The position numbers were made by a program, and so were the translations under genes. DNA of 64,000 nucleotides, taken from positions 13,781 to 77,780 of the IMG/VR virus record IMGVR_UViG_3300044899_000017; one strand, written 5' to 3'. The DNA is from a virus. Positions 29,116 through 59,049 of the stretch are shown here, one piece after another. Below the pieces are notes generated by a model that saw nothing but the letters and a program-made list of their open reading frames with translations, did not search any database and had not been told where the DNA came from. Position 1 is the first letter of the stretch. Every line of letters begins with the position of its first letter.

Positions 29116-29143
29116 GGTATCGGCCTACGGCCGGACCTAGACT
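29116..29143 (+). promoter_or_regulatory. Putative late-class leaderless promoter
   Basis: GGTATC-N16-TAGACT, 6 nt before GTG 29150. Confidence 0.65.
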
Positions 29144-32794: not shown

Positions 32795-33145
32795 GTGTCT
32801 CCCCTGTCGAAGCTCTATCCGCTGCTCGAAGCAGCTCGCGCCGTCCTCGCCGCGCTCGCCGGCCTCGCTGCCGTCCTCGCGTCCTCGGGCGACCTCCTGC
32901 ACCTTCCCGCCGGCGTGACGGGCGCGCTCGTCGCGTTCGTGGCGTATGTCGGGCAGCTCGGCATCCGCTCGAAGACGACGCCGTTCGCCGAGCCGGACAC
33001 GTCGCAGGTGCCCGAGCTGGCGGACACGCCGGAGTTCGCTGCCGTGGCCGCGCCGCCGCAGCGTGCCGAGGCCGAGGAGCCGCCGGCGCGGAAGCGCGCG
33101 AGCCGCGCCGGAGCTGCGCGCTCGAAGTCTTCGCGCTCGCGCTGA
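32795..33145 (+). CDS. Putative holin
   Basis: Two hydrophobic helices then IRSKTTP; directly after endolysin. Confidence 0.65.
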   Translation: MSPLSKLYPLLEAARAVLAALAGLAAVLASSGDLLHLPAGVTGALVAFVAYVGQLGIRSKTTPFAEPDTSQVPELADTPEFAAVAAPPQRAEAEEPPARKRASRAGAARSKSSRSR

Positions 33146-33182
33146 TCCGGGGCTTCCACCTGCGCGAGCGGGTACGATTGCG

Positions 33183-33283
33183 GCCGACGGTAATCGTCGA
33201 TCCTCGTGCGGCTCGGGTAAAGCAGCGCGACCGGCGAGCTGTCGAACGAAGGCGGGTCTTCACGGCCCGCCTTCGTCGTTCTC
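33183..33283 (+). ncRNA. Candidate trans-acting antisense small RNA
   Basis: -10 TACGAT at 33173-33178; 5' hairpin, unpaired seed 33200-33222, second hairpin, 13-bp terminator stem 33246-33276; seed complementary to 8 gene leaders. Confidence 0.7.
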
Positions 33284-33371
33284 GGAGGGGAATCGCGGCC
33301 GCGCTCGAAGGGATGCCGACCGATGCCGAACGTATCGTCGCCGCATCGTCACCCGAGCCGCAGGAGGAACC

Positions 33372-34721
33372 GTGGGAGCAGCAGACGCAGGGACCGCGCT
33401 AGACACGATCCCGGAGGAGGAGCGTAACCTCCGGGGCCTCGAACTCGCCGAGCAGCACTTCCCGCCGGAGCGCCGAGCGCAGGTCGCCGCGTTTCTCGAA
33501 GTGCCCGCGGAGTCGCCGGCGCTGCTGCCGTTCCTCGCGTGGTGCGCTGCGAACCGGTACTCGCCGATAGCCGGCCACGTGTGGCTGATCCCGAAGAAGA
33601 TCAAGGCGAAGGACGGCGAGCCGGAGCGGACGATCTACAAGCCGGCGGTGGGGCGCGACGGGCTGCTGCACAAAGCTCGCGAGTCGAAGGGCAAGCCGAA
33701 CGGCTACCGCGGCCTGAAGTTCGGCGTCGTCTGCGAGCGCGACACGTTCGAGGTCGAGGAGGACGGCTCGATGGACGGGCCGAAGATTCTCCACCGCTAC
33801 GCGTCGAAGCCGACGGAGTTCGCGCCGGACGAGTCGCCGGACCGCTACCGCGGCCGCGTGATCGGCGCGTGGGCGAAGTGCTTCGTGGACGGCGAGCCGC
33901 CGACGTTCTACTTCGCCAACCTGCGCGAGCATGGCCGGCTGCGGCACGTGTGGGACTACAACCCGAACGAACACTCGCGGAAGCCGATCTACCTCGACGC
34001 CGAGGGGAAGAAGACGTGGGCAGAGTTCGGCGAGGGCGGGATGCGGAACCGGCCTCTTCAGGAGTGGGAGGGCGCGTGGGAGTACCTGTCCACGATGATC
34101 CTGAAGGCGGCGCAGTCGTACGTGCTGCGGATCGCGCTCGGGATCACGGGCATCGTGCCGGTGGACGAGCTGCGCGACGTGACCTCGTGGAAGGAAGGCG
34201 ACACGGGCGCGGCCGTCGAGACGGGCGTGATGGCTGCACCCGAGGCCGAGTTCGACTTCGACGTGCTGACCGCTGACGAGGAGCTGCGCGAGCGGCTGCG
34301 CCACGCGGTCGAGACGGCGAACGAGCAGGAGCCGTTCGCGTGGGGGCCGGCGAAGTGCGAGATGGTGCTGTCGGGCCGCACGGACGACGAGCTGCGGACC
34401 TTCGTCGAGCAGATCGAGCGCGAGAACGACCTGCGCGAGCAGCGCATCGCGAAGGCGGCTGGCGAGGAGCCGGTCGTGGACGCCGAGGTCGTCGAGGAGG
34501 AGCCGGAGGAGGAGAAGCCCGCCGGCGCCGGCGTGTCGATCACCGCGGCGGCGCTCGACGTGGGGGACCGCGTGTGGCGCGGCGAGACGCTGCGCGTCGT
34601 GACGGTGAAGGAACGCGACGGCGACACGGTGACGCTCGGCTTCGAGGGCGAGGACGAGCCGGTGACGGTCCCGTCCGGGGAGGGCTTCATGGTCGTGCAG
34701 GGCGGCGCCGGCGGGAGCTAG
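33372..34721 (+). CDS. RecT/Red-beta-like single-strand annealing protein
   Basis: GGAGG RBS then GTG 33372; SP...VWLIP, VGRDGL...A, IGAWAK, W....TMI.KAA...LR.A.G..G. Confidence 0.8.
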   Translation: MGAADAGTALDTIPEEERNLRGLELAEQHFPPERRAQVAAFLEVPAESPALLPFLAWCAANRYSPIAGHVWLIPKKIKAKDGEPERTIYKPAVGRDGLLHKARESKGKPNGYRGLKFGVVCERDTFEVEEDGSMDGPKILHRYASKPTEFAPDESPDRYRGRVIGAWAKCFVDGEPPTFYFANLREHGRLRHVWDYNPNEHSRKPIYLDAEGKKTWAEFGEGGMRNRPLQEWEGAWEYLSTMILKAAQSYVLRIALGITGIVPVDELRDVTSWKEGDTGAAVETGVMAAPEAEFDFDVLTADEELRERLRHAVETANEQEPFAWGPAKCEMVLSGRTDDELRTFVEQIERENDLREQRIAKAAGEEPVVDAEVVEEEPEEEKPAGAGVSITAAALDVGDRVWRGETLRVVTVKERDGDTVTLGFEGEDEPVTVPSGEGFMVVQGGAGGS

Positions 34722-40322: not shown

Positions 40323-40365
40323 CGATAACTCTGTTATCGTCGCAGGCGTACCCGAGCCGTAGGAG
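40323..40365 (+). promoter_or_regulatory. Early promoter/operator plus leader, copy 2
   Basis: CGATAACTCTGTTATCG then TACCCGAGCCGTAGGAG. Confidence 0.85.
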
Positions 40366-40371
40366 AACACG

Positions 40372-40767
40372 ATGGAGCAGAAGACCGAACTCTCGCAGGG
40401 CGCCCGACTCCTGAAGCGTGGCGACACGTTCGACCCGGAGTGCCATCGCACGACGCACCGGCTCGCGCGTGCGCTGACGATCCTGCGGGCGATGGGCATC
40501 GAGCCGAAGCACGCCGAGCATGATCCCGAGACGTGCCTCCTGCACCCGGACAATCGCTCGAAGCGGATGATGCAGTTCCGCGGCGAGCCGGCTCCCTGCA
40601 CGTGCGGCGCGCAGCGCAAGGCGCCGACGTGGCCGGCGCACGTGGACGCCGAGACGTTCAATCTCGCGTACCGGCTCGCCGACCACGAGCAGACGATTCG
40701 CGGGCAGTGGCATCAGGCCGAGATAAACCGCGAGCAGGCCGAGCGCCGCGCGGCCGCGGCGAGCTGA
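40372..40767 (+). CDS. Hypothetical protein
   Basis: RBS; H...C..H...CTCG motif. Confidence 0.7.
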   Translation: MEQKTELSQGARLLKRGDTFDPECHRTTHRLARALTILRAMGIEPKHAEHDPETCLLHPDNRSKRMMQFRGEPAPCTCGAQRKAPTWPAHVDAETFNLAYRLADHEQTIRGQWHQAEINREQAERRAAAAS

Positions 40768-41433: not shown

Positions 41434-41485
41434 CGATAGCTCCGTTATCCTTCGGGCGACCACCCGAGCTGAACGAACGAGGAGG
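41434..41485 (+). promoter_or_regulatory. Early promoter/operator plus leader, copy 3
   Basis: CGATAGCTCCGTTATCC then CACCCGAGCTGAACGAACGAGGAGG. Confidence 0.8.
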
Positions 41486-41490
41486 AAGCG

Positions 41491-41676
41491 ATGTCGATGA
41501 AGATGCGCCGAAGGACCGGCGCCGTGATGGTGGTGGTGGCCGCGCTGCTGGCCGTGGTGGCGACGGGGCCGCTCGGGTGGGGCTTCGGCGTCGTGCTGGC
41601 GATCCTCGTCGGCCTCGCCGGCGCGTCGCTCGCCACGGCGCGCCACCCGTACGACCACGTGCGGGACGGCTTCTGA
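41491..41676 (+). CDS. Small two-helix membrane protein
   Basis: Strong RBS; two hydrophobic segments. Confidence 0.75.
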   Translation: MSMKMRRRTGAVMVVVAALLAVVATGPLGWGFGVVLAILVGLAGASLATARHPYDHVRDGF

Positions 41677-42194: not shown

Positions 42195-44033
42195 ATGTCG
42201 CCGGCAGAGATTTACCTCGCGAAGTCCGGAAGCCGCCGCGGCGCCACGCTGCCGGCCGATTCGGTCACTCGGACGTTCGGCATCTTCGGCGTGAAGGACT
42301 CGGGCAAGTCCACCACGGCGCGCACGCTCGCCGAGGGCGTCGTGAAGCTCGGCGGGCACGTCGTGATCCTCGACCCGGTGGGCGTGTGGTGGGGCATCAC
42401 GCGCCGCGGCGAGGGGCCGGGCCTGCCGGGCATCGTGATCGGCGGCGAGCATGGGGACGTGCCGCTAGAGAAGGAAGGCGGCGCGCTCGTCGCGGAGTTC
42501 GTGGTGGGCCGGCATTACCCGGTCGTCGTGATTGACACGATGCTGCTGCGGAAGGGCGCGCGGCTCGCGTTCCTCGCCGACTTCCTCGAAGGCGTCTACC
42601 ACTCGAACCGGCGTCCGCTTCAGCTCGTGTTCGAGGAGGCGGACGAGGCGCTGCCGCAGTCGCCGCGGGGCATGAACCCGACGCTCGGGCGCGTGCTGGG
42701 CGCGGCCGAGGACATCGTGAAGAAGGGCCGCTCGCGCGGCCTCGGCTCGACGTTCATCTCGCAGCGGTTCGCCACGGTGACGAAGAACGTCACGACGCAG
42801 GTCGAGTGCCTGATCCTCCACGCGCAGCCGGCGCCGCAGGATCAGAAGGCGGTGAAGGAATGGGTCGCGACGAACGGCGACACGCGCGTCACGGACCGCG
42901 TGATGGCGTCGATGGCGTCGCTCGATGTCGGCGAGGCATGGCTGTACTCGCCGAAGTGGCTGAAGCTGCTCGCGCAGATTCGCGTGCGGAAGCCGAAGAC
43001 GCTCGACTCGTCCTCGACGCCGACGGACGACGAGCGCGAGCTAGACGAGCAGGCGCCGCGCGCGCCGGTCGATAAGGCCGAGCTGGCGCGGCAGATGTCG
43101 GAGGTCGTCGAGCGCGCGAAGGGTAAGGACCCGGCCGAGCTGAAGAAGCGGATCGCCGAACTCGAAGCGCAGCTCGCAGACGTGAAGCCCGAGGTCGTCG
43201 AGGTCGCCGGCGAGCGGGTGATCGTGCCGGACGCCGAGACGGTGCGGGAGTTGGCCGAGTCCGTGGAGGTCTTCGCGGACGCCGCGCAGGCGATCACGGA
43301 CTCCGTGGAACACCTGCTGTCCGAGGCCGAGGGGCTAGATAGGCGGATCACCCGAGCCGAGGAGACGCGCCGCGAAGTCGTGGACGCGCTCGCGGCCGCG
43401 CGGGCGACGCTCGACGAGCTGAAGGGCATCCCGGCCGAGGGCGTGCCCGTCACGCCGGCGCCGCGCGCTGCGCCAGCTCCGCGGCCTCGTGCCGCCGCGG
43501 CGTCGAACGGGAAGCCCGCAGCGCCGGCGGGCGATGCCGAGGACGTGTCGCCGGGCGCGCTGAAGCTGCTCGACGAGATGCGCGAGGTGTACCCCCTACG
43601 GTTGAACCGTATTCAGCTCGCGACGATCCTCGGGCGGGGGAAGAAGTCCTCGACGCTGACGCAGCAGCTCGCCGAGCTGAAGGACGCGGACCTGATCCGG
43701 GAGGACGGCTCGAAGCTGCTGTCGGCGGTCGTCACGGGCGCGCAGGCCGAGATGTCGAAGGGCGAGCTGATCGACCGGTGGCGCTCGGCGCTGCCCGAGG
43801 GTCCGCTCGCGCTGCTCGACGTGCTGCTCGGACTGCCCGGCGGCGGCGGCATCGGGAAGGACGACCTCTTCGTGCAGGCGGGCTTCTCGGCCACGTCCTC
43901 GACGCCGGTCGGGCACCTGAAGATGCTGAAGGACAATGGGCTGGCATTCGAGCCGCAGAAGAAGGTCGTGATGCTCGGGCCGGCGCTCGCCGATCAGGAG
44001 GCGGACCCGCGGGGAGCTGCGACCGTCCGATAA
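42195..44033 (+). CDS. HerA/FtsK-superfamily ATPase with coiled coil and C-terminal wHTH-like domains
   Basis: G..DSGKS, ILDP.G, FEEAD...PQ, GRSRGLG...SQR. Confidence 0.88.
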   Translation: MSPAEIYLAKSGSRRGATLPADSVTRTFGIFGVKDSGKSTTARTLAEGVVKLGGHVVILDPVGVWWGITRRGEGPGLPGIVIGGEHGDVPLEKEGGALVAEFVVGRHYPVVVIDTMLLRKGARLAFLADFLEGVYHSNRRPLQLVFEEADEALPQSPRGMNPTLGRVLGAAEDIVKKGRSRGLGSTFISQRFATVTKNVTTQVECLILHAQPAPQDQKAVKEWVATNGDTRVTDRVMASMASLDVGEAWLYSPKWLKLLAQIRVRKPKTLDSSSTPTDDERELDEQAPRAPVDKAELARQMSEVVERAKGKDPAELKKRIAELEAQLADVKPEVVEVAGERVIVPDAETVRELAESVEVFADAAQAITDSVEHLLSEAEGLDRRITRAEETRREVVDALAAARATLDELKGIPAEGVPVTPAPRAAPAPRPRAAAASNGKPAAPAGDAEDVSPGALKLLDEMREVYPLRLNRIQLATILGRGKKSSTLTQQLAELKDADLIREDGSKLLSAVVTGAQAEMSKGELIDRWRSALPEGPLALLDVLLGLPGGGGIGKDDLFVQAGFSATSSTPVGHLKMLKDNGLAFEPQKKVVMLGPALADQEADPRGAATVR

Positions 44034-44077
44034 CCCTGTTATCGTGCCGTCCACCCGAGTCATTCGATCACGAGGAG
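44028..44077 (+). promoter_or_regulatory. Early promoter/operator plus leader, copy 4
   Basis: CGATAACCCTGTTATCG (overlaps HerA stop) then CACCCGAGTC...CACGAGGAG. Confidence 0.85.
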
Positions 44078-44085
44078 ACGGCGAG

Positions 44086-45129
44086 ATGGCGGAAGCAGCG
44101 AAGCGGAGCAGCGCGAACACGGACCTCTACATCGGCACGATGAAGGTCCCGGTGGGCCTCTTCGGCACGATGGCGTCGCCGGCGAAAGAGCAGAAGTTCG
44201 ACACGGCCGGACCGAACGGCGGGAAGCTGAAGTACGAGCAGCGCGCCGTGATCGCCGAGCAGGAGTCGGACGTGGCCGACGAGCCGGACGCGCCCGTGCA
44301 GTCCGACCCGCTCGCGACGAGCGATCCCGGCTCGGACGCGCCGGCGCTCGCCGATACCGTCGAGCGTGCCGAGGCGCGCTCGGCCGAGCTGCGGCAGGCT
44401 GCCGATGTCGGCCGGAAGATGATGGACTCCGGACCGGGGACGCTCGTGCCCGGCGAGTTCCGGCAGGTACTCGTCGAGGAAGGCTCCGGCGAGGTCGTCG
44501 AGGCCGAGGACGTGCGCCGCGGCGTGCGGCTCGAAGACGGCCGCTTCATCGACGTAACGGAGCAGGTGACGGCCATCGACACGCGCACGAAGCTCGACCG
44601 GATCGAGATTCTGCGGTGCGTGGACTCGACGCAGATCAGGCGCGAGCGTGTGATCGGCGCTTACTACGTCGGCGCGCAGGAGACGGAGGGCCTGCCGTAC
44701 CTGCGGCTGCTCTTCGAGGCGCTGAAGAAGCGGCGCGAGGTCGCCGTCGTGAAGTACACGACGAAGAGCCGGCAGAACCTCGGCGTGATCAGCGCGAACG
44801 CGAAGACCGGCACGCTGATCCTGAACTCGCTCGTCTTCGCCGAGGACTGGCGCGAGCCGCCGGCGAAGGCGCTCGGCATCGCAAAGGTGCAGGTCGCGGA
44901 GTCGCAGGTCGAGCAGATGGCCGAGCTGCTGTCCGTGATGCACGGCCACGTGGACGACGTGGACGCGCTCCGCGACGACGCGATAGCGCTGCGCGAGGAG
45001 CTGCGCGCGCGTGCCGAGGCGGGCGAGATGGCCGAGGTCGTCGAGCCGATGCCGGCGGCGGACGCGGTGCCGGACCTCGAAGGCGCGCTCGCCGCGTCGC
45101 TCGAAGCGGTCCGTGCGGGCAAGGTCTAG
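44086..45129 (+). CDS. ku: Ku-like DNA end-binding protein
   Basis: G...VPV.L, D..RG....G.F, IEI...V....I, YYV, LL..AL, L..L.F...R, DL..AL.ASL; start moved to ATG 44086 by RBS. Confidence 0.85.
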   Translation: MAEAAKRSSANTDLYIGTMKVPVGLFGTMASPAKEQKFDTAGPNGGKLKYEQRAVIAEQESDVADEPDAPVQSDPLATSDPGSDAPALADTVERAEARSAELRQAADVGRKMMDSGPGTLVPGEFRQVLVEEGSGEVVEAEDVRRGVRLEDGRFIDVTEQVTAIDTRTKLDRIEILRCVDSTQIRRERVIGAYYVGAQETEGLPYLRLLFEALKKRREVAVVKYTTKSRQNLGVISANAKTGTLILNSLVFAEDWREPPAKALGIAKVQVAESQVEQMAELLSVMHGHVDDVDALRDDAIALREELRARAEAGEMAEVVEPMPAADAVPDLEGALAASLEAVRAGKV

Positions 45130-47914: not shown

Positions 47915-47968
47915 TGATAACTCTGTTATCGTGGTGGGCGTACCCGAGCTGTCCACCACCACGAGGAG
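47915..47968 (+). promoter_or_regulatory. Early promoter/operator plus leader, copy 5
   Basis: TGATAACTCTGTTATCG then TACCCGAGCTGT...CACGAGGAG. Confidence 0.85.
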
Positions 47969-47979
47969 AATCACCCGCA

Positions 47980-48756
47980 ATGTCCACACTTACCGCAGTC
48001 CCCGCAGCCGCCGCCATCGCGCCGGCGCCGCCGCAGCCGCAGGTCGCCGATCCCATCGCGCCGTTCATCGCGCCGCACCTGCTCGTGACGACCGCGCACC
48101 CGTCGCTGCTTCAGCATCCCGACCCGGACACGGACGCGCCGGTGCATCGCCATCTCGGCCGTCTGCTGCAACCGCGGCACACGTCAAGCGTCGAGGCGAC
48201 CGCCGCGGCCGGCATCCCGTGGGCCTGCGATAACGACTGCTTTCAGGGCCTCGACGAGAAGGCATTCGTGCGGATGATCGACCGCATGGTGGGCCTGCCC
48301 GGCTGCCGGTTCGTGACGGTGCCCGACGTGGTGGCCGACGCGCGCGCCACGGCGAAGCAGTTCGAGACGTGGGCGCCGGCGCTCGAACGCCGCGGCCTCC
48401 CGCTCGCGCTCGTGCTTCAGAACGGCATCGACGCGCCCGACCTTCAGGGGTGGCTCGCGTTCACGTGGCACCGGCTCGACGCGGTGTTCATCGGCGGCGA
48501 CGACGACTTCAAGCTCGGACCGCTCGCGGCCGAGCTGGCGCGCGACGCGAAGGCGCACGGCCTGCACGTTCACTGGGGCCGCGTGAACTCGCGCAAGCGG
48601 ATGAAGCACTGCATCGAGACGGGCGCGTGCGACTCGCTCGACGGCTCGATGTGGGCGCGCTTCCGAAAGACGCATCTCGATAAGGGGCTGCGGTGGCTCG
48701 GCGAGCTGTCGTCGGAGCCGATGCTGCCGTTCGAGCTGGCGGTCGCCGCGGCCTAG
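47980..48756 (+). CDS. TGT-fold / DpdA-like base-exchange enzyme
   Basis: W..DN.CF, VPD.V.D...T, V.Q.G, FIGG, H.GRVN...R, DS.DGS. Confidence 0.7.
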   Translation: MSTLTAVPAAAAIAPAPPQPQVADPIAPFIAPHLLVTTAHPSLLQHPDPDTDAPVHRHLGRLLQPRHTSSVEATAAAGIPWACDNDCFQGLDEKAFVRMIDRMVGLPGCRFVTVPDVVADARATAKQFETWAPALERRGLPLALVLQNGIDAPDLQGWLAFTWHRLDAVFIGGDDDFKLGPLAAELARDAKAHGLHVHWGRVNSRKRMKHCIETGACDSLDGSMWARFRKTHLDKGLRWLGELSSEPMLPFELAVAAA

Positions 48757-48848: not shown

Positions 48849-48900
48849 CGATAACTCTGTTATCGTGCCGTGTGTACCCGAGCTGCACGACCTGAGGAGG
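48849..48900 (+). promoter_or_regulatory. Early promoter/operator plus leader, copy 6
   Basis: CGATAACTCTGTTATCG then TACCCGAGCTGCACGA..GAGGAGG. Confidence 0.85.
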
Positions 48901-48905
48901 TCGCG

Positions 48906-49961
48906 ATGTCCACCACCACTAGCACTTCCCACACGTACGCGGTAGGCGACCGCGTTCGCATCCTGAAGCCGGGCGAGGAGGGCGAGGGGCAGATCACCTT
49001 CGTCTCCGACGACGGCGCGCCGGCGAGCCTCGAAGTCTCCCGGCACTTCGCCGGCGGGCTGTGGCTGCGACCCGATCAGGTCGAGCTGATCACGCCGGCG
49101 CCCGAGGTTCAGAAGACGGAGGCCGGCGAAGACGGCATCCGCGCGGAGAAGGTGCTGATCACGGAGCGGAACGCCGGCGGGCAGTGCGTGCGCGAGGTCG
49201 TGGTCGAGCGGATCACGGAGGACGGCTCGATCCGGCAGACGACGGTCCGCGAGGTCGAGTACGACACGGAGACGGCGACCGCGAAGTGGGAGACGCCGCG
49301 CGCTGTCTCGCCGGACCGCGCGACCGCGTACATCGAGGAGTGCTACGAGCGCGAGCTGCTGACGCGGCCCGGGGAGGAGCTGATCATGCCGACGATGTTC
49401 GACGAGATTCGGAGCCGTCACGCGACGGAGCAGGACGCGGCGCGCGAGCTGGGCCGCGGGCTGATGCGCGGCGACCGCGCCAGCTTCAAGCTCGGGTGGT
49501 CGTGGGAGAACTCGGCGCTCGCCGCCATCGACGCGTACACGCTCGACGACGACGACATCGCGGAGCTGCGCTGCTACCTGCTCGGCTATGCGGTCGGGCT
49601 GTCCGCCGGCGGCGGCGACGAGATGGGCGAGCGGATGCTCGCGCGGCTGCCGCAGCCGGAGGAGTTCCGCGCGGCGTACACGACCGGGAAGCACGACGGC
49701 CGGCAGGAGCAGGTCGGCGTGACCTACCCGGACGTGATCGAGACGGCCGCGGCGCGGCGCCAGCGCGAGCGCGAAGAGCTGCTGACGATGCGCGAGTGCG
49801 GCTGCGGCGCGACGACGGAGGGCGAATGCTGCGCCGCGGTGGAGGGCTACTTCACGTCGCTCGGGCAGCGCTCCGAACACGAGCTGCGCGAGCTGCACGA
49901 GGGCGACGGCTGCGAGGCCGCGCGCATCCTCCTCGTGAAGCGCGCGGGGCGGGACTCCTAA
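48906..49961 (+). CDS. Hypothetical multi-domain protein, N-terminal SH3/KOW-like domain
   Basis: RBS then ATG 48906; Y.VGDRVRI...G.I. Confidence 0.75.
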   Translation: MSTTTSTSHTYAVGDRVRILKPGEEGEGQITFVSDDGAPASLEVSRHFAGGLWLRPDQVELITPAPEVQKTEAGEDGIRAEKVLITERNAGGQCVREVVVERITEDGSIRQTTVREVEYDTETATAKWETPRAVSPDRATAYIEECYERELLTRPGEELIMPTMFDEIRSRHATEQDAARELGRGLMRGDRASFKLGWSWENSALAAIDAYTLDDDDIAELRCYLLGYAVGLSAGGGDEMGERMLARLPQPEEFRAAYTTGKHDGRQEQVGVTYPDVIETAAARRQREREELLTMRECGCGATTEGECCAAVEGYFTSLGQRSEHELRELHEGDGCEAARILLVKRAGRDS

Positions 49962-49996
49962 CGAAACTTCGGCTCGGGTACAGCGACCGAAGGCGT

Positions 49997-50026
49997 GACC
50001 GGCCGGCTCCTCGTGGCCGGCCGGTC
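49997..50026 (+). terminator. Hairpin with TCCTCGTG loop
   Basis: GACCGGCCGGC-TCCTCGTG-GCCGGCCGGTC. Confidence 0.55.
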
Positions 50027-50076
50027 CGCAGCCTAAGATCGCGCCACCCGAGCTGTAGGAATCCGAGGATCGAGCG

Positions 50077-52974
50077 ATGGCCGACGAGAAGACACTCGAA
50101 GAGGAGCAGGCGAAGCTAGCCGAGCTGGCGCGCCGCGCCGAGGAGTTGCGCGCCGCGGAGACGGGCACGGACCTCGTGCCCGTCGGCGGGCAGTCGCCGG
50201 AGGCCGCGAAGCGCGAGATGGCGAAGACGAAGGCCGAGGCCGCGCGTCGCATGAAGGCCGTGCAGGTGCAGGGCGCGAAGGTCCGCGCGATCATCGAACG
50301 GCAGGCGAAGGAAGCCGAGCGCGTGATGCAGGCCGCACTCGCCGAACTCGAACCGATGCAGGAGATGGTCCGCCGGCTCGAAGAGGGCATATGGACGGTG
50401 AACCTGTACCTCGGCACGAGCGAGAAGATCGTGCAGCTCGCCGACGGGAAGCCGGCGTCGAAGGACACGCCGATCACGGTCCGGCAGCTCGTGCTGTCGA
50501 TGGACGAGGAGTGCGCCATCGAGGCCGACTCCGGCGGCATCGACTCGATGGACATCCCGAAGTTCGACCGGTGGCTGCAAGAGGACTGGCGCCACGTCGA
50601 GCAGGTGCTTCCCGAGCTGAAGGGCGTCGTCGCGCTCGTGCCGCGGCAGGGCGAGGGGAAGGACTACGGCGGCTATGGCGGCGGCATCCTTCAGTCCGAG
50701 GTCGAGAAGGAAAACAAGCGCACGTACATCCTGATCCGGAACGGCGAGAAGCTGTGGCGCGTGCGGCCGAACATGGTCGTCGGCGAACGGCTCGTGCCGA
50801 CCTCGGACGAGTTCACGGACCTCTTCCTCGACCGCGGCTTCGGTGGACGCTCGGAGCCGAAGGTGATGAAGCCCGGCTCGAAGGCGTGGGAGAACGCGGC
50901 TAAGGCGATGGAGGCGCGCGAGCGCCACTACATGCGCGTGGCGCTCGTGCTTCAGGGCCTTACGGATCGCACGCCGGTCTTCCACCCGATGCCCGAGGCC
51001 GGCGTGTCGTTCCTCGAACGCCAGCACTACGCGGAGCAGCGCGTGCGGTTCATCCTCGACGCCGAACGTTCGCTCGGCACGGGCCGCGAAGAGTTCCGCG
51101 ACTGGCAGAAGCGGCTGATGGGCGAGCTGCGCGTGGGGATGCGCGTCGTCGGCGACTTCCGCCGGTGGAAGGGCGCCGGCTTTGGCTCGCTGCACCGCGA
51201 GCCGCGCGACCGATGGGACCTGCGCGGGCACGAGCGGCTGCACCCGCCGGAGGCGATCTACCCGACGACGGGCGAGCTGTATGCCATCGAGGAGCGCCGC
51301 GGCGACGACCTGATCTTCCGCTACAGCCGCGGCACGATTTACGACCCGAAGCTGTGGGTCGAGTCGGAGACGCGGCCGGGGTGGGGGCACTACGGCGGCG
51401 AGCGCGAGGCGAAGCAGCGGGCCTCGTGCGTCGTGCAGCAGAAGGACGAGTGGGTCATGCCGTTCGACCTCGTGACGGAGGCCGAGTGCGAGGCGTACCT
51501 GCGGGCACGCACGGAGCGCCACGCATACCGGGAGATGTTCCCGCTGCTGAAGGCCGTGATCAAGGCGAAGCGCCGCGAGGCCGAGGAGGAGGCGCCGTTC
51601 CGGACGATGCTCGCCGGCGTGCTGGCGCGCGAGAACGGCGGGACGGTCGAGGAGGCCGAGGCCGAGCTGCCCGACCTCGTGTCGTGGTGGAAGCTGAAGA
51701 ACCGCAATCACCGGCCGCTCGTCGGCGACGAGGCGTCGAACGCGAAGGCCGTCCGGATGATCGTCGCCGAGCATCGCCGGCGGATCGAGGATCGGCACCG
51801 GCCGATCCGCGCCGAGGTCGTCGCCGAGCTGAAGCACGAGCATCCCGAGGCGGTCGTGATCGTGCGGCCGCGCCGCGGCGGGTATCTCGTGCTGCTGCCC
51901 GCGGAGCCGGTGAAGAACGTGTGGGTCCACGAGGTCGAGTACTCGGCGCGCGGCGAGTTGAAGGAACGCCGCGAGTGGCAGCTCGTGCGCGACCGGCAGA
52001 CGCGGTGGACGGTGGCGCACGCCGGCGCGCGGTGGGGCGAGTGGGACACGGGCGCGTCTGCGCTAGATCACCTGACCGGACCCGAGCGCGCGCAGCTCGC
52101 CGAGGCCGTGCGGCGGAAGCACGCCGGCACGAAGAAGGTCGAGCGGTACGACGGGCCGCTGCTCGCCATCACGCACGAGCTGACGAAGGACGGCGACGAC
52201 GAGTTCGTGGCGTGGATGCGGACGGGGTTTACTGCGACGCTCGACGAGGCGCACCCGCTGACCGTCAGGCCGTCGGAGCCGGACTCACACGGCGACGTGT
52301 ACGGCTGGCGGCGAACTACCGGCGGCGGCGTCACGCTCGCGCAGAGCGCGTGGGGCGGCACGCGCAGCGGGTGGCTCGGCCGGCACTTCATCGACGACGA
52401 CGGCGAGCCGGGGTGGGCGTGGGAGCAGGGCGCCGGCGAAGTGCTGTACCTCGACGAGAAGCGGATCGAGAAGCTGAAGGCCGACCGCGTGCGGTACGAG
52501 GCGCTTCAGGACCGCCGGCACGACCTCGAACGCGAGGCGGGCCGGTGGCACGGCGACATCGAGGCGCAGTGGCTCGCAGCGCGCGAGCGCGAGCGGTTCG
52601 AGGCGTTCCTGCGGGAGTACTCGGAGCCGGAGCTGTGGGCGGGGCACCGGAAGGGCCTGAAAGACCTGCGGTGGCCGACGGCGGCGCAGGCTGACCTGCT
52701 GTGGCAGGCGCTCGCCGATGCGGTCGAGCGCGGCGTGCCGATCAAGGGGCGGACTGTCGCCGACCTCGTGGGCGACCGGAAGGTGTCGAAGGGCGACCGC
52801 GAGAACTTCGGGCTGCCGAAGGGCGCCGGCGACCTCGTGTTCGGCGCCGAACCGGTGCAGGGGCCGTGGAACGCGCCCGAGGAGGACGACGAGCCGGAGG
52901 ACGAGCTGATCGTCGAGGAGGACGACGAGGAGCCGTTCGAGGTCGTCGAGGTCGATGCCGAGGAAGTCGCGTGA
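50077..52974 (+). CDS. Large hypothetical phage protein (965 aa)
   Basis: Long ORF, own -10 (TAAGAT) and leader; N-terminal coiled coil, globular core, acidic tail. Confidence 0.85.
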   Translation: MADEKTLEEEQAKLAELARRAEELRAAETGTDLVPVGGQSPEAAKREMAKTKAEAARRMKAVQVQGAKVRAIIERQAKEAERVMQAALAELEPMQEMVRRLEEGIWTVNLYLGTSEKIVQLADGKPASKDTPITVRQLVLSMDEECAIEADSGGIDSMDIPKFDRWLQEDWRHVEQVLPELKGVVALVPRQGEGKDYGGYGGGILQSEVEKENKRTYILIRNGEKLWRVRPNMVVGERLVPTSDEFTDLFLDRGFGGRSEPKVMKPGSKAWENAAKAMEARERHYMRVALVLQGLTDRTPVFHPMPEAGVSFLERQHYAEQRVRFILDAERSLGTGREEFRDWQKRLMGELRVGMRVVGDFRRWKGAGFGSLHREPRDRWDLRGHERLHPPEAIYPTTGELYAIEERRGDDLIFRYSRGTIYDPKLWVESETRPGWGHYGGEREAKQRASCVVQQKDEWVMPFDLVTEAECEAYLRARTERHAYREMFPLLKAVIKAKRREAEEEAPFRTMLAGVLARENGGTVEEAEAELPDLVSWWKLKNRNHRPLVGDEASNAKAVRMIVAEHRRRIEDRHRPIRAEVVAELKHEHPEAVVIVRPRRGGYLVLLPAEPVKNVWVHEVEYSARGELKERREWQLVRDRQTRWTVAHAGARWGEWDTGASALDHLTGPERAQLAEAVRRKHAGTKKVERYDGPLLAITHELTKDGDDEFVAWMRTGFTATLDEAHPLTVRPSEPDSHGDVYGWRRTTGGGVTLAQSAWGGTRSGWLGRHFIDDDGEPGWAWEQGAGEVLYLDEKRIEKLKADRVRYEALQDRRHDLEREAGRWHGDIEAQWLAARERERFEAFLREYSEPELWAGHRKGLKDLRWPTAAQADLLWQALADAVERGVPIKGRTVADLVGDRKVSKGDRENFGLPKGAGDLVFGAEPVQGPWNAPEEDDEPEDELIVEEDDEEPFEVVEVDAEEVA

Positions 52975-58274: not shown

Positions 58275-58600
58275 GAGAGTCCGACGCTCGGATGATCGTG
58301 GCGACGCTGAACCGCGTGTCGTTCGTCGAATGGGACCGGCTCGTGCGCGGTCCCGCGGCGAACGATCCCGAGGCGTGGTACGTGACGGTGTACGGGTGGA
58401 TCGGGCGCGACGATGGCCGCTCGGACTTCGTGCTGATCGAGTTCTCCTCGTGGGCGCCGGAGCCGTACTTCCTTACGTCGAGCGCGGCGCGGTCGCACGA
58501 CATCGCGGCCGCGATCTACGGCACGCAGGAGGGGCACGCCGGCGACTGCGAGCGCGTCGAGGTCGTGTTCCCGGACGTGGTGCGGAAGGCCGAGCTGTGA
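58271..58600 (+). CDS. Hypothetical protein
   Basis: FVEWDR..VYGWI.R.DGRSDFV. Confidence 0.65.
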   Translation: MRESDARMIVATLNRVSFVEWDRLVRGPAANDPEAWYVTVYGWIGRDDGRSDFVLIEFSSWAPEPYFLTSSAARSHDIAAAIYGTQEGHAGDCERVEVVFPDVVRKAEL

Positions 58601-59049
58601 CGCTCGTGTGCGAGCGCAGGGCACGCGTGCTGTCCGCGACGGTGGTGAAGGCCGCGGCGGTCGCTATCGGCCTCGAACACGTGATGCGCGAGTCGCACGA
58701 GCAGATCGCGGCGGACGAAGGCCGGCGGTCCACGTGGCCGCACGCGTGCTGCACGGACGCGTCGGCGGACCTGTACGACGAGCTGAACGAGTGCGTGCCC
58801 GAGGCGTACGCGGAGCTAGTGTGGGGCGAGTGGGTCTACGAGCCGGGCGAGCTGGCGCCGTGGTGGGCGCTGTGGCGTGGGCCTCCGTGGCGCCGGTACG
58901 AGGGGCACACGTGGGTCGCGCTCGGCGAGTCGCTGCTGCCGCCGATCCTCGATATGACGCTCGGGCAGTTCGTCGGCGGCGACGCGTTCGGCCTCGTGCT
59001 GCCGGGCGACCCGCTGTACGAGCGCTACGTCGAGCGCGAGCGATGCTGA
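58597..59049 (+). CDS. Papain/transglutaminase-like Cys-His-Asp protein
   Basis: CC.DAS..L, H.WV, ILD.T..QF. Confidence 0.65.
   Translation: MTLVCERRARVLSATVVKAAAVAIGLEHVMRESHEQIAADEGRRSTWPHACCTDASADLYDELNECVPEAYAELVWGEWVYEPGELAPWWALWRGPPWRRYEGHTWVALGESLLPPILDMTLGQFVGGDAFGLVLPGDPLYERYVERERC

Follow-up and report, generated by a model that had tools for sequence, protein, structure and literature searches.

A conserved anti-leader element upstream of the RecT gene is a candidate antisense regulator of early genes in an uncultured phage

The gap upstream of the RecT recombinase gene in an uncultured phage holds a discrete element, supported as non-coding, which carries a seed complementary to a box in the leaders of early genes and which is conserved in seven diverged genomes where it covaries with that box. 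We consider it somewhat more probable than otherwise that this element is a trans-acting antisense RNA which represses the leadered early genes and, where transcription reads through the terminator, works on RecT in cis as well; production of the RNA, its action in trans, repression and timing are all features that we infer. The phage genome (hereafter G000) is a 77,780-bp IMG/VR virus record (IMGVR_UViG_3300044899_000017) of soil metagenome origin with 127-bp terminal repeats and 71% GC, and the window analysed here, to which coordinates refer unless stated otherwise, is the 64,000-nucleotide stretch formed by its bases 13781–77780. All convincing G000 genes lie on the + strand. No cultured phage has a terminase more than about 25% identical to its own, indicating that G000 has no close cultured relative, and searches of cultured phages by megablast and tblastn with the region and with RecT returned no match.

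An earlier note on this DNA had placed a candidate small RNA in a "holin-recombinase gap". The gap exists, with its downstream boundary now corrected to a RecT start at GTG 33372, and the following features are located in or beside it.

32795–33145, + strand: gene for a small membrane-type protein, preceding the element and coming after the GH25 endolysin gene
33146–33371, + strand: gap between the upstream gene and RecT
33151–33178, + strand: putative small-RNA promoter, GGCTTC, 16 nt, TACGAT (from sequence)
33173–33178, + strand: -10 box TACGAT (from sequence)
33185–33199, + strand: 5' hairpin CGACG/GTAAT/CGTCG (from sequence and fold)
33197–33220, + strand: anti-leader stretch of 24 nt, reverse complement TTACCCGAGCCGCACGAGGATCGA
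about 33200–33208, + strand: anti-leader arm 2, AUCCUCGUG, complementary to the Shine-Dalgarno sequence (SD)
about 33208–33220, + strand: anti-leader arm 1, GCGGCUCGGGUAA, complementary to the leader box
33246–33284, + strand: terminator hairpin with a 13-bp stem (33246–33258 with 33264–33276), 5-nt loop and weak U-tail
33333–33374, + strand: RecT leader with -10 TATCGT (33333–33338), box ACCCGAGCCGCA (33351–33362) and SD AGGAGGA (33362–33368)
33372–34721, + strand: RecT recombinase gene, GTG start behind AGGAGGA, 449 aa

Positions 33185–33283 are predicted to encode a non-coding RNA of about 100 nt consisting of a seed-bearing 5' domain followed by a terminator, and the -10 box, 5' hairpin, 24-nt complement and 13-bp stem described earlier are all present at these positions. 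For the 103-nt RNA the predicted fold energy is -54.3 kcal/mol (z = -3.8). Its seed had been described as lying in an unpaired stretch, which is not what the minimum-energy fold gives, as there a short stem carries CGGGUAA (33214–33220) as its 7-nt loop. The U-run behind the terminator hairpin is weak (4 T in 8) and a simple terminator scan makes no call; read-through is thus plausible, and the same hairpin probably also ends the late lysis operon. A sigma-70 scan made no call for the small-RNA promoter, whose -35 is not conserved among the relatives described below. We class the element as non-coding on the composition of the gap open reading frame and the lack of conservation outside the seed in the closest relative, G001. 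The sole + strand frame spanning the gap (33178–33402) has, by eye, A/T in many third codon positions, and third-position GC in real G000 genes is 0.86–0.96. Searches against Rfam found no family at gathering score in the whole window and noise only at E values up to 10 over 33100–33420. By eye, no - strand gene or promoter accompanies this inverted copy of the leader sequence in G000 or G001.

A 601-codon stop-free frame (32919–34721) runs across the gap into RecT, and upstream of GTG 33372 it was rejected as a high-GC artefact; it illustrates that open frames at 71% GC do not prove coding. Within the 449-aa RecT protein, the Pfam RecT domain covers residues 51–269 only, and the long acidic C-terminal part, which is conserved in about 55 homologues, matches no family except for a weak match to DUF6767. 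Some 50 nearer RecT homologues are present in Logan assemblies. Contigs of two soil runs yielded the source contig and identical fragments only, without informative variants.

The proposed target of the seed is a leader box, ACCCGAGCYG, found behind a palindromic promoter box at 11 early and DNA-metabolism genes in G000 including RecT, Ku, a polymerase-exonuclease-like protein and several genes without known function. Eight of these leaders fall in the window, and all eight matches in the earlier note proved to be real; three further cassettes were found in the 13.8 kb before the window (genome positions 4168, 6743 and 11092). The leaders in the window, other than that of RecT, are as follows.

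82–112, + strand: leader of a DNA polymerase exonuclease-like gene
40350–40374, + strand: leader of a 131-aa gene
41462–41493, + strand: leader of a 61-aa membrane-like gene
44053–44088, + strand: leader of the Ku gene
47942–47982, + strand: leader of a 258-aa gene (phrog_15826)
48876–48908, + strand: leader of a 351-aa gene
50046–50079, + strand: leader of a 965-aa gene, with the best predicted duplex (-40 kcal/mol)
55–72, 40323–40340, 44028–44044, 47915–47932, 48849–48866 and others: palindrome over the early -10

The 11 promoter-linked copies share the + strand, and each stands between a TANNNT box and an SD with start codon; against these 11 forward copies G000 has one strong reverse copy, namely the anti-leader. 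The sequence TACCCGAGC occurs 50 times at up to one mismatch, compared to 17 expected. In the G000 cassette ACCCGAG comes 6–12 nt after the -10, which is mostly TATCGT, the right arm of the palindrome CGATAAC-N3-GTTATCG; this palindrome overlies the -10 at 9–10 of the 11 sites and is also present in the related genomes G001 and G006, and the relatives of group B are without it. It resembles a dimeric repressor's operator, and its presence over the early -10 boxes suggests that there is a repressor protein, whereas the earlier note had described a phage with no visible repressor gene. The box follows the -10 by 6–15 nt and precedes the SD by 2–15 nt in G000 (longer in relatives), lying 10–35 nt upstream of the start codon and separate from the SD. 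From its position just downstream of the -10, the predicted early mRNAs would begin with the box or close to it.

When the 127 predicted start regions of G000 were ranked by duplex energy with the seed, the ten leader genes that had been called, which are those covered by this ranking, took places 1–9 and 17, and six start regions attained the median leader energy compared to 0.3 on average with shuffled seeds. This is the ranking over background that the earlier note had looked for. Two-arm duplexes pairing with both box and SD are predicted at all 11 G000 leaders (-30 to -40 kcal/mol), and relatives form similar duplexes, the second arm extending to the start codon in G003. The idea that the second arm covers the SD therefore holds for these duplexes, whereas its complementarity to leader genes does not exceed that to the remaining genes with an SD (p = 0.03, 0.2 and 0.6 in three genomes), placing the specificity in arm 1. 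An RNAduplex scan of all 50-nt + strand windows did not single out the leaders; several coding windows score equally owing to the GC-rich (71%) genome. In the seven predicted RNAs the probability of being unpaired is 0.40–0.81 for UCGGG (0.81 in G000) compared to 0.16–0.42 for the rest of the 5' domain, and the fraction of shuffled-flank controls reaching the native accessibility of UCGGG is 0.03–0.25. UCGGG is placed in an apical loop in five of the RNAs; in the other two the loop is internal. A generic scan for UCGGG in hairpin loops was uninformative.

Six relatives were recovered for comparison. G001, an 86-kb record with a RecT 65% identical to that of G000, was located by an exact-pattern scan for the palindrome, and G002, G003, G004, G006 and G007 by profile-guided scans with RecT and the adjacent PD-(D/E)XK exonuclease, G006 and G007 having entered via the exonuclease (51% and 44% identical, respectively). 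RecT identity to G000 is 32–65% across G001–G004, and the seven genomes amount to about four lineages, so that counts across them are not independent. RecT searched as a single protein against IMG/VR and against genome contigs gave no match, and against metagenome contigs only two short distant matches; an exact pattern scan for the small-RNA core produced two chance matches, and scans for the palindrome and the promoter-leader pattern produced mostly chance matches in addition to G001. Three sequences with the exonuclease and no RecT (L194, L195 and L196) are without such leaders. A MAFFT alignment of the seven RNAs did not align the seeds across groups.

The order of features upstream of RecT is the same in all seven genomes: gene stop, TANNNT, anti-leader, hairpin, RecT promoter, leader box and SD. 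TANNNT and seed are separated by 17–64 nt, and the hairpin is GC-rich with 11–17 predicted pairs and a T-rich tail (weak in G000). The anti-leader core, TCGTGCG(G/A)CTCGGGTAAAG, is identical at 21 of 22 positions between G000 and G001 amid diverged flanks and terminator sequence, and its lone change, G to A, mirrors the change of the leader from ACCCGAGC to ACCCGAGT and is thus compensatory. The leader cores of the seven genomes are given below.

G000: leader core ACCCGAGC, anti-leader complementary
G001: leader core ACCCGAGT, anti-leader complementary
G006: leader core ACCCCGAG, anti-leader complementary
G002 and G007: leader core CACCCGATC, anti-leader complementary
G003: leader core CACCACCCGAAC, anti-leader complementary
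G004: leader core CACCCGAAC, anti-leader complementary

Genome sets are distinguished by GAGC, GAGT, CCCCGAG, GATC or GAAC in the leader core, and the anti-leader shifts with each. Even a 1-nt insertion in G006 is present in both leader and anti-leader (CUCGGGGU). Complete or near-complete relatives have 3–10 promoter-linked leaders each, with their own core, and when every seed was compared with every leader set, pairing was longest within the own genome in six of the seven rows of the resulting cross matrix. The covariation that the earlier note had proposed to look for in related phages is accordingly found, and across seven genomes it strengthens an RNA-level reading well beyond what a match in a single genome could, on the sequences compared. 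The earlier argument from G:U-compatible deviations stands locally and not globally: leaders of G000, G001 and G003 are C/U polymorphic beside the core at a position where the anti-leader has a G able to pair with both (in G000 and G001 this G is not the complement of the majority base), whereas transitions counted over a wide window comprised 120 wobble compared to 109 A.C pairs.

One further leadered gene was observed in group B, where a leftward gene about 2 kb upstream of RecT has the promoter and leader box of the rightward early genes.

G003 33919, - strand: leftward leadered gene
G002 16920, - strand (reoriented coordinates): leftward leadered gene
G004 26828, - strand (reoriented coordinates): leftward leadered gene
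G007 343, - strand: leftward leadered gene

Promoters of a second class, GGKATC-N16-TANNNT, are followed by a start codon 6–9 nt past the -10 and hence give leaderless mRNAs. Eight such promoters in G000 and seven to eight in G001 precede structural, lysis and packaging genes.

1067, 6768, 9147, 9927, 15465, 29116, 59371 and 60419: GGKATC-N16-TANNNT promoters of the window

The small-RNA promoter had been likened to this late class. Its -35, GGCTTC, has identical N16 spacing but matches at only four of six positions and is not conserved in the closest relative G001, which weakens the likeness. The element follows three tightly packed genes, the endolysin and membrane-type protein genes being last, downstream of the late promoter at 29116, and precedes the first strong hairpin. 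From this arrangement we expect late transcripts to end with the anti-leader regardless of the activity of the element's own promoter. Late mRNAs, being leaderless with neither box nor SD, would be immune to the RNA.

We posit the following mechanism for repression in trans. The antisense RNA would arise by transcription from the element's -10, by forming the tail of the late lysis-operon transcript, or in both ways, with a common terminator, and a hairpin loop would display the seed (C)UCGGGUA. The seed would nucleate on (U)ACCCGAGCYG at or near the 5' ends of the 11 promoter-proximal early and DNA-metabolism mRNAs, after which pairing would extend to the anti-SD arm CCUCGUG with the variable spacer between box and SD looped out. 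Ribosome loading would thereby be blocked, and the duplex may be open to RNase III. Late genes transcribed from GGKATC-N16-TANNNT promoters would escape. The net effect would be post-transcriptional shut-off, or an immunity-like damping, of the leadered early class, and in transcripts reading through the terminator the same seed would pair in cis with the RecT leader. Hfq is not known from Actinobacteria, which would count against this reading were the host one of them.

Pairing with the adjacent leader suggests an alternative in which the anti-leader acts only in cis as an insulator, within read-through and TACGAT-derived transcripts, such that only transcripts of its own regulated promoter yield RecT protein. 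The anti-leader is perfectly complementary over 12 nt, and to the SD in addition, to the RecT leader that follows it by 130 nt on the + strand, and the resulting stem is present in both the minimum-energy and the centroid folds of the 255 nt from 33146 to 33400. The adjacent RecT leader is also the sole perfect match to arm 1 in G000 and G001, and in G000, G001 and G003 no other leader is preceded by a significant complement, nine of the 11 G000 leaders being without any. The fixed place beside RecT in all seven genomes, the weak U-tail in G000 and the second anti-box modules described below, which are likewise just upstream of a leader, also favour a cis role, and the long stem could serve as an RNase III site by analogy with lambda sib retroregulation. 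We nevertheless consider an exclusively cis-acting insulator rather unlikely, since pairing confined to RecT cannot explain a box on all leaders: the ten other leaders and the genome-wide joint change of box and anti-leader are left unaccounted for. A conserved -10 and a loop-displayed seed would moreover be unnecessary for a long-range stem and would compete with it. Nor is the adjacent leader always the best match; the G003 anti-leader is perfect over 14 nt to the consensus of the other leaders and forms a U.G wobble with that of RecT, another G006 leader matches over 10 nt compared to 9 for RecT, and in G002 and G007 pairing with the RecT leader ends 4–6 nt short of the SD. The earlier proposal that one RNA could silence the early programme is partly supported, by a conserved covarying element, two-arm duplexes and top-ranked leaders; action in trans is our interpretation, and cis pairing with the RecT leader is predicted as well.

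A trans-acting RNA need not repress. It could shield mRNA 5' ends from 5'-end-dependent RNases or open self-sequestered SDs, as might fit the box at the very start of the predicted mRNAs, G003-type leaders with CUUCC...GGAGG that could self-mask the SD, and a seed that leaves the SD uncovered in G002 and G007, or it could act against host mRNAs. We regard such roles as improbable given that in G000, G001 and G003 pairing takes in the SD and in some cases the start codon, which is normally repressive, and that location at the end of a late operon suggests late expression. Even less probable in our estimation is that the box is an asymmetric DNA site bound by a phage or host protein just past the early promoters, a stoperator or roadblock, with 33208–33220 a site in the opposite orientation. 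Cluster A mycobacteriophage stoperators, many asymmetric DNA sites per genome bound by the phage repressor, provide a precedent; the box is within about 6–15 bp of the -10 at every early promoter, and genome-specific motif variants are equally expected from co-evolution with a protein. However, the spacing to -10 and SD varies, which is easier to reconcile with RNA pairing than with a protein site of rigid geometry, and the inverted copy keeps its SD-like extension with no - strand gene or promoter following, yet is flanked by a + strand -10 and terminator in all seven genomes. Its seed falls in predicted RNA loops, and at C/U positions it bears the base that pairs with both in RNA rather than one matching the majority base. 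A functionless relic or chance inverted duplication of the RecT leader, finally, we find barely credible: the element is short and many 8-mers recur in a high-GC genome, but it occupies the same place in seven genomes with RecT identity down to 32%, shows compensatory changes, and retains its core between G000 and G001 amid diverged flanks.

Weaker modules of a similar kind are present elsewhere in G000 and G001.

49967–50025, + strand: second, weaker anti-box module, a hairpin with GCTCGGGT followed by a GC-rich hairpin with loop TCCTCGT
G001 85670–85735: similar anti-box module, a hairpin showing TCGGGT followed by a GC-rich hairpin

Both occupy 3'UTR-like gaps just upstream of a leader-bearing promoter. 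The 8-nt match of the G000 module alone is not significant (23 of 200 shuffles), its TCCTCGT loop is an anti-SD, and the 965-aa gene that follows has no homologue in the relatives. In longer leaders of G003 (50387, 72797, 73303 and 33919 on the - strand), GGAGG or AAGGAG is preceded at a few bases' distance by CUUCC or CUCCU, which could mask the leader's own SD.

Were repression in trans by this RNA true, one short RNA would control about 11 scattered operons by means of the phage's own early-mRNA tag, early and late protein synthesis would be separated by RNA alone, and the element would offer synthetic biology a compact orthogonal regulator for high-GC Gram-positive hosts.

Among known systems, the T4 proteins RegA, a translational repressor, and RegB, an endoribonuclease, damp many early mRNAs at their ribosome-binding regions. 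The factor proposed for G000 would similarly turn down many early mRNAs, as an RNA instead of a protein. The c4 RNA of P1/P7 (immI) and the CI RNA of P4 are encoded upstream of their target on the same strand and use short seeds to ribosome-binding regions, acting both on the transcript that carries them and in trans; in the temperate phages concerned, they target a single operon at one or two sites. We know of no phage antisense RNA with experimental evidence that acts on more than one or two sites. The G000 seed is likewise complementary to the ribosome-binding region of a downstream same-strand gene (RecT); the element has no sequence or structure similarity to these RNAs and no match to the Rfam C4 model, and unlike them it has a box on 11 scattered promoter-proximal leaders and its own predicted terminator with no evident processing signal. 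It shares with bacterial-type small-RNA genes the predicted intrinsic terminator, non-coding nature and an accessible covarying seed. The C-rich-loop small RNAs of Gram-positives including Actinobacteria (6C/B11) are Hfq-independent and pair pyrimidine- or C-rich loops with G-rich SDs. PMC10470900 gives B11 as an example of this class. These RNAs are host-encoded, unlike the G000 element, the specificity of which would come from the phage box rather than the SD and the seed of which is G-rich (UCGGG). The Cluster A stoperators, which are mentioned in PMC3203893, differ from the G000 box in the latter's variable spacing and RNA-type features.

In Cluster K mycobacteriophages and Cluster EF Microbacterium phages, a conserved asymmetric motif, the start-associated sequence (SAS), precedes 10–19 non-structural genes in one orientation, and some of its sites are linked to a promoter-bearing inverted repeat further upstream (extended SAS, ESAS); the function of SAS is still described as unknown, a question open since 2011, and the SAS descriptions cited here propose no antisense RNA (PMC3203893, PMC11373665, PMC7302621, PMC12699233). 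SAS is a 13-bp sequence (GGGATAGGAGCCC, up to two mismatches) located 3–9 bp upstream of start codons at the SD, unlike the G000 box, which has a different sequence (ACCCGAGCYG) and lies 10–35 nt upstream apart from the SD. The inverted repeat over the -10 at 9–10 of 11 G000 sites is reminiscent of ESAS, and the single orientation plus one strong reverse copy of SAS in subcluster K1, where the reverse copy is situated away from gene starts (PMC3203893, PMC11373665, PMC7302621, PMC12699233). The K1 phage Adephagia has 16 forward SAS copies and one reverse copy (record 58682–58694), the latter forming the 10-nt apical loop of a very stable + strand hairpin (z = -6.7). A TAGACT box precedes this hairpin, which falls within 58580–58720 between genes 92 and 93, where late transcription is reported to start (PMC11373665), and which is a candidate anti-SAS RNA. 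No reverse copy occurs at the right ends of ZoeJ or Pixie, so SAS can be present in its absence and the Adephagia parallel is a lead, not a rule. A temporal switch common to actinobacterial-type phages, in which leader-tagged early genes are silenced by an anti-leader RNA that late transcripts contain or that is made alongside them, late genes being leaderless, would also explain the reverse SAS of K1; we advance it tentatively, thinking it less likely true than false. It nonetheless offers a testable idea for mycobacteriophage SAS/ESAS, as these phages are culturable and RNA-seq already exists. The closest counterparts of the G000 element are thus c4 and CI in mechanism and SAS/ESAS in anatomy.
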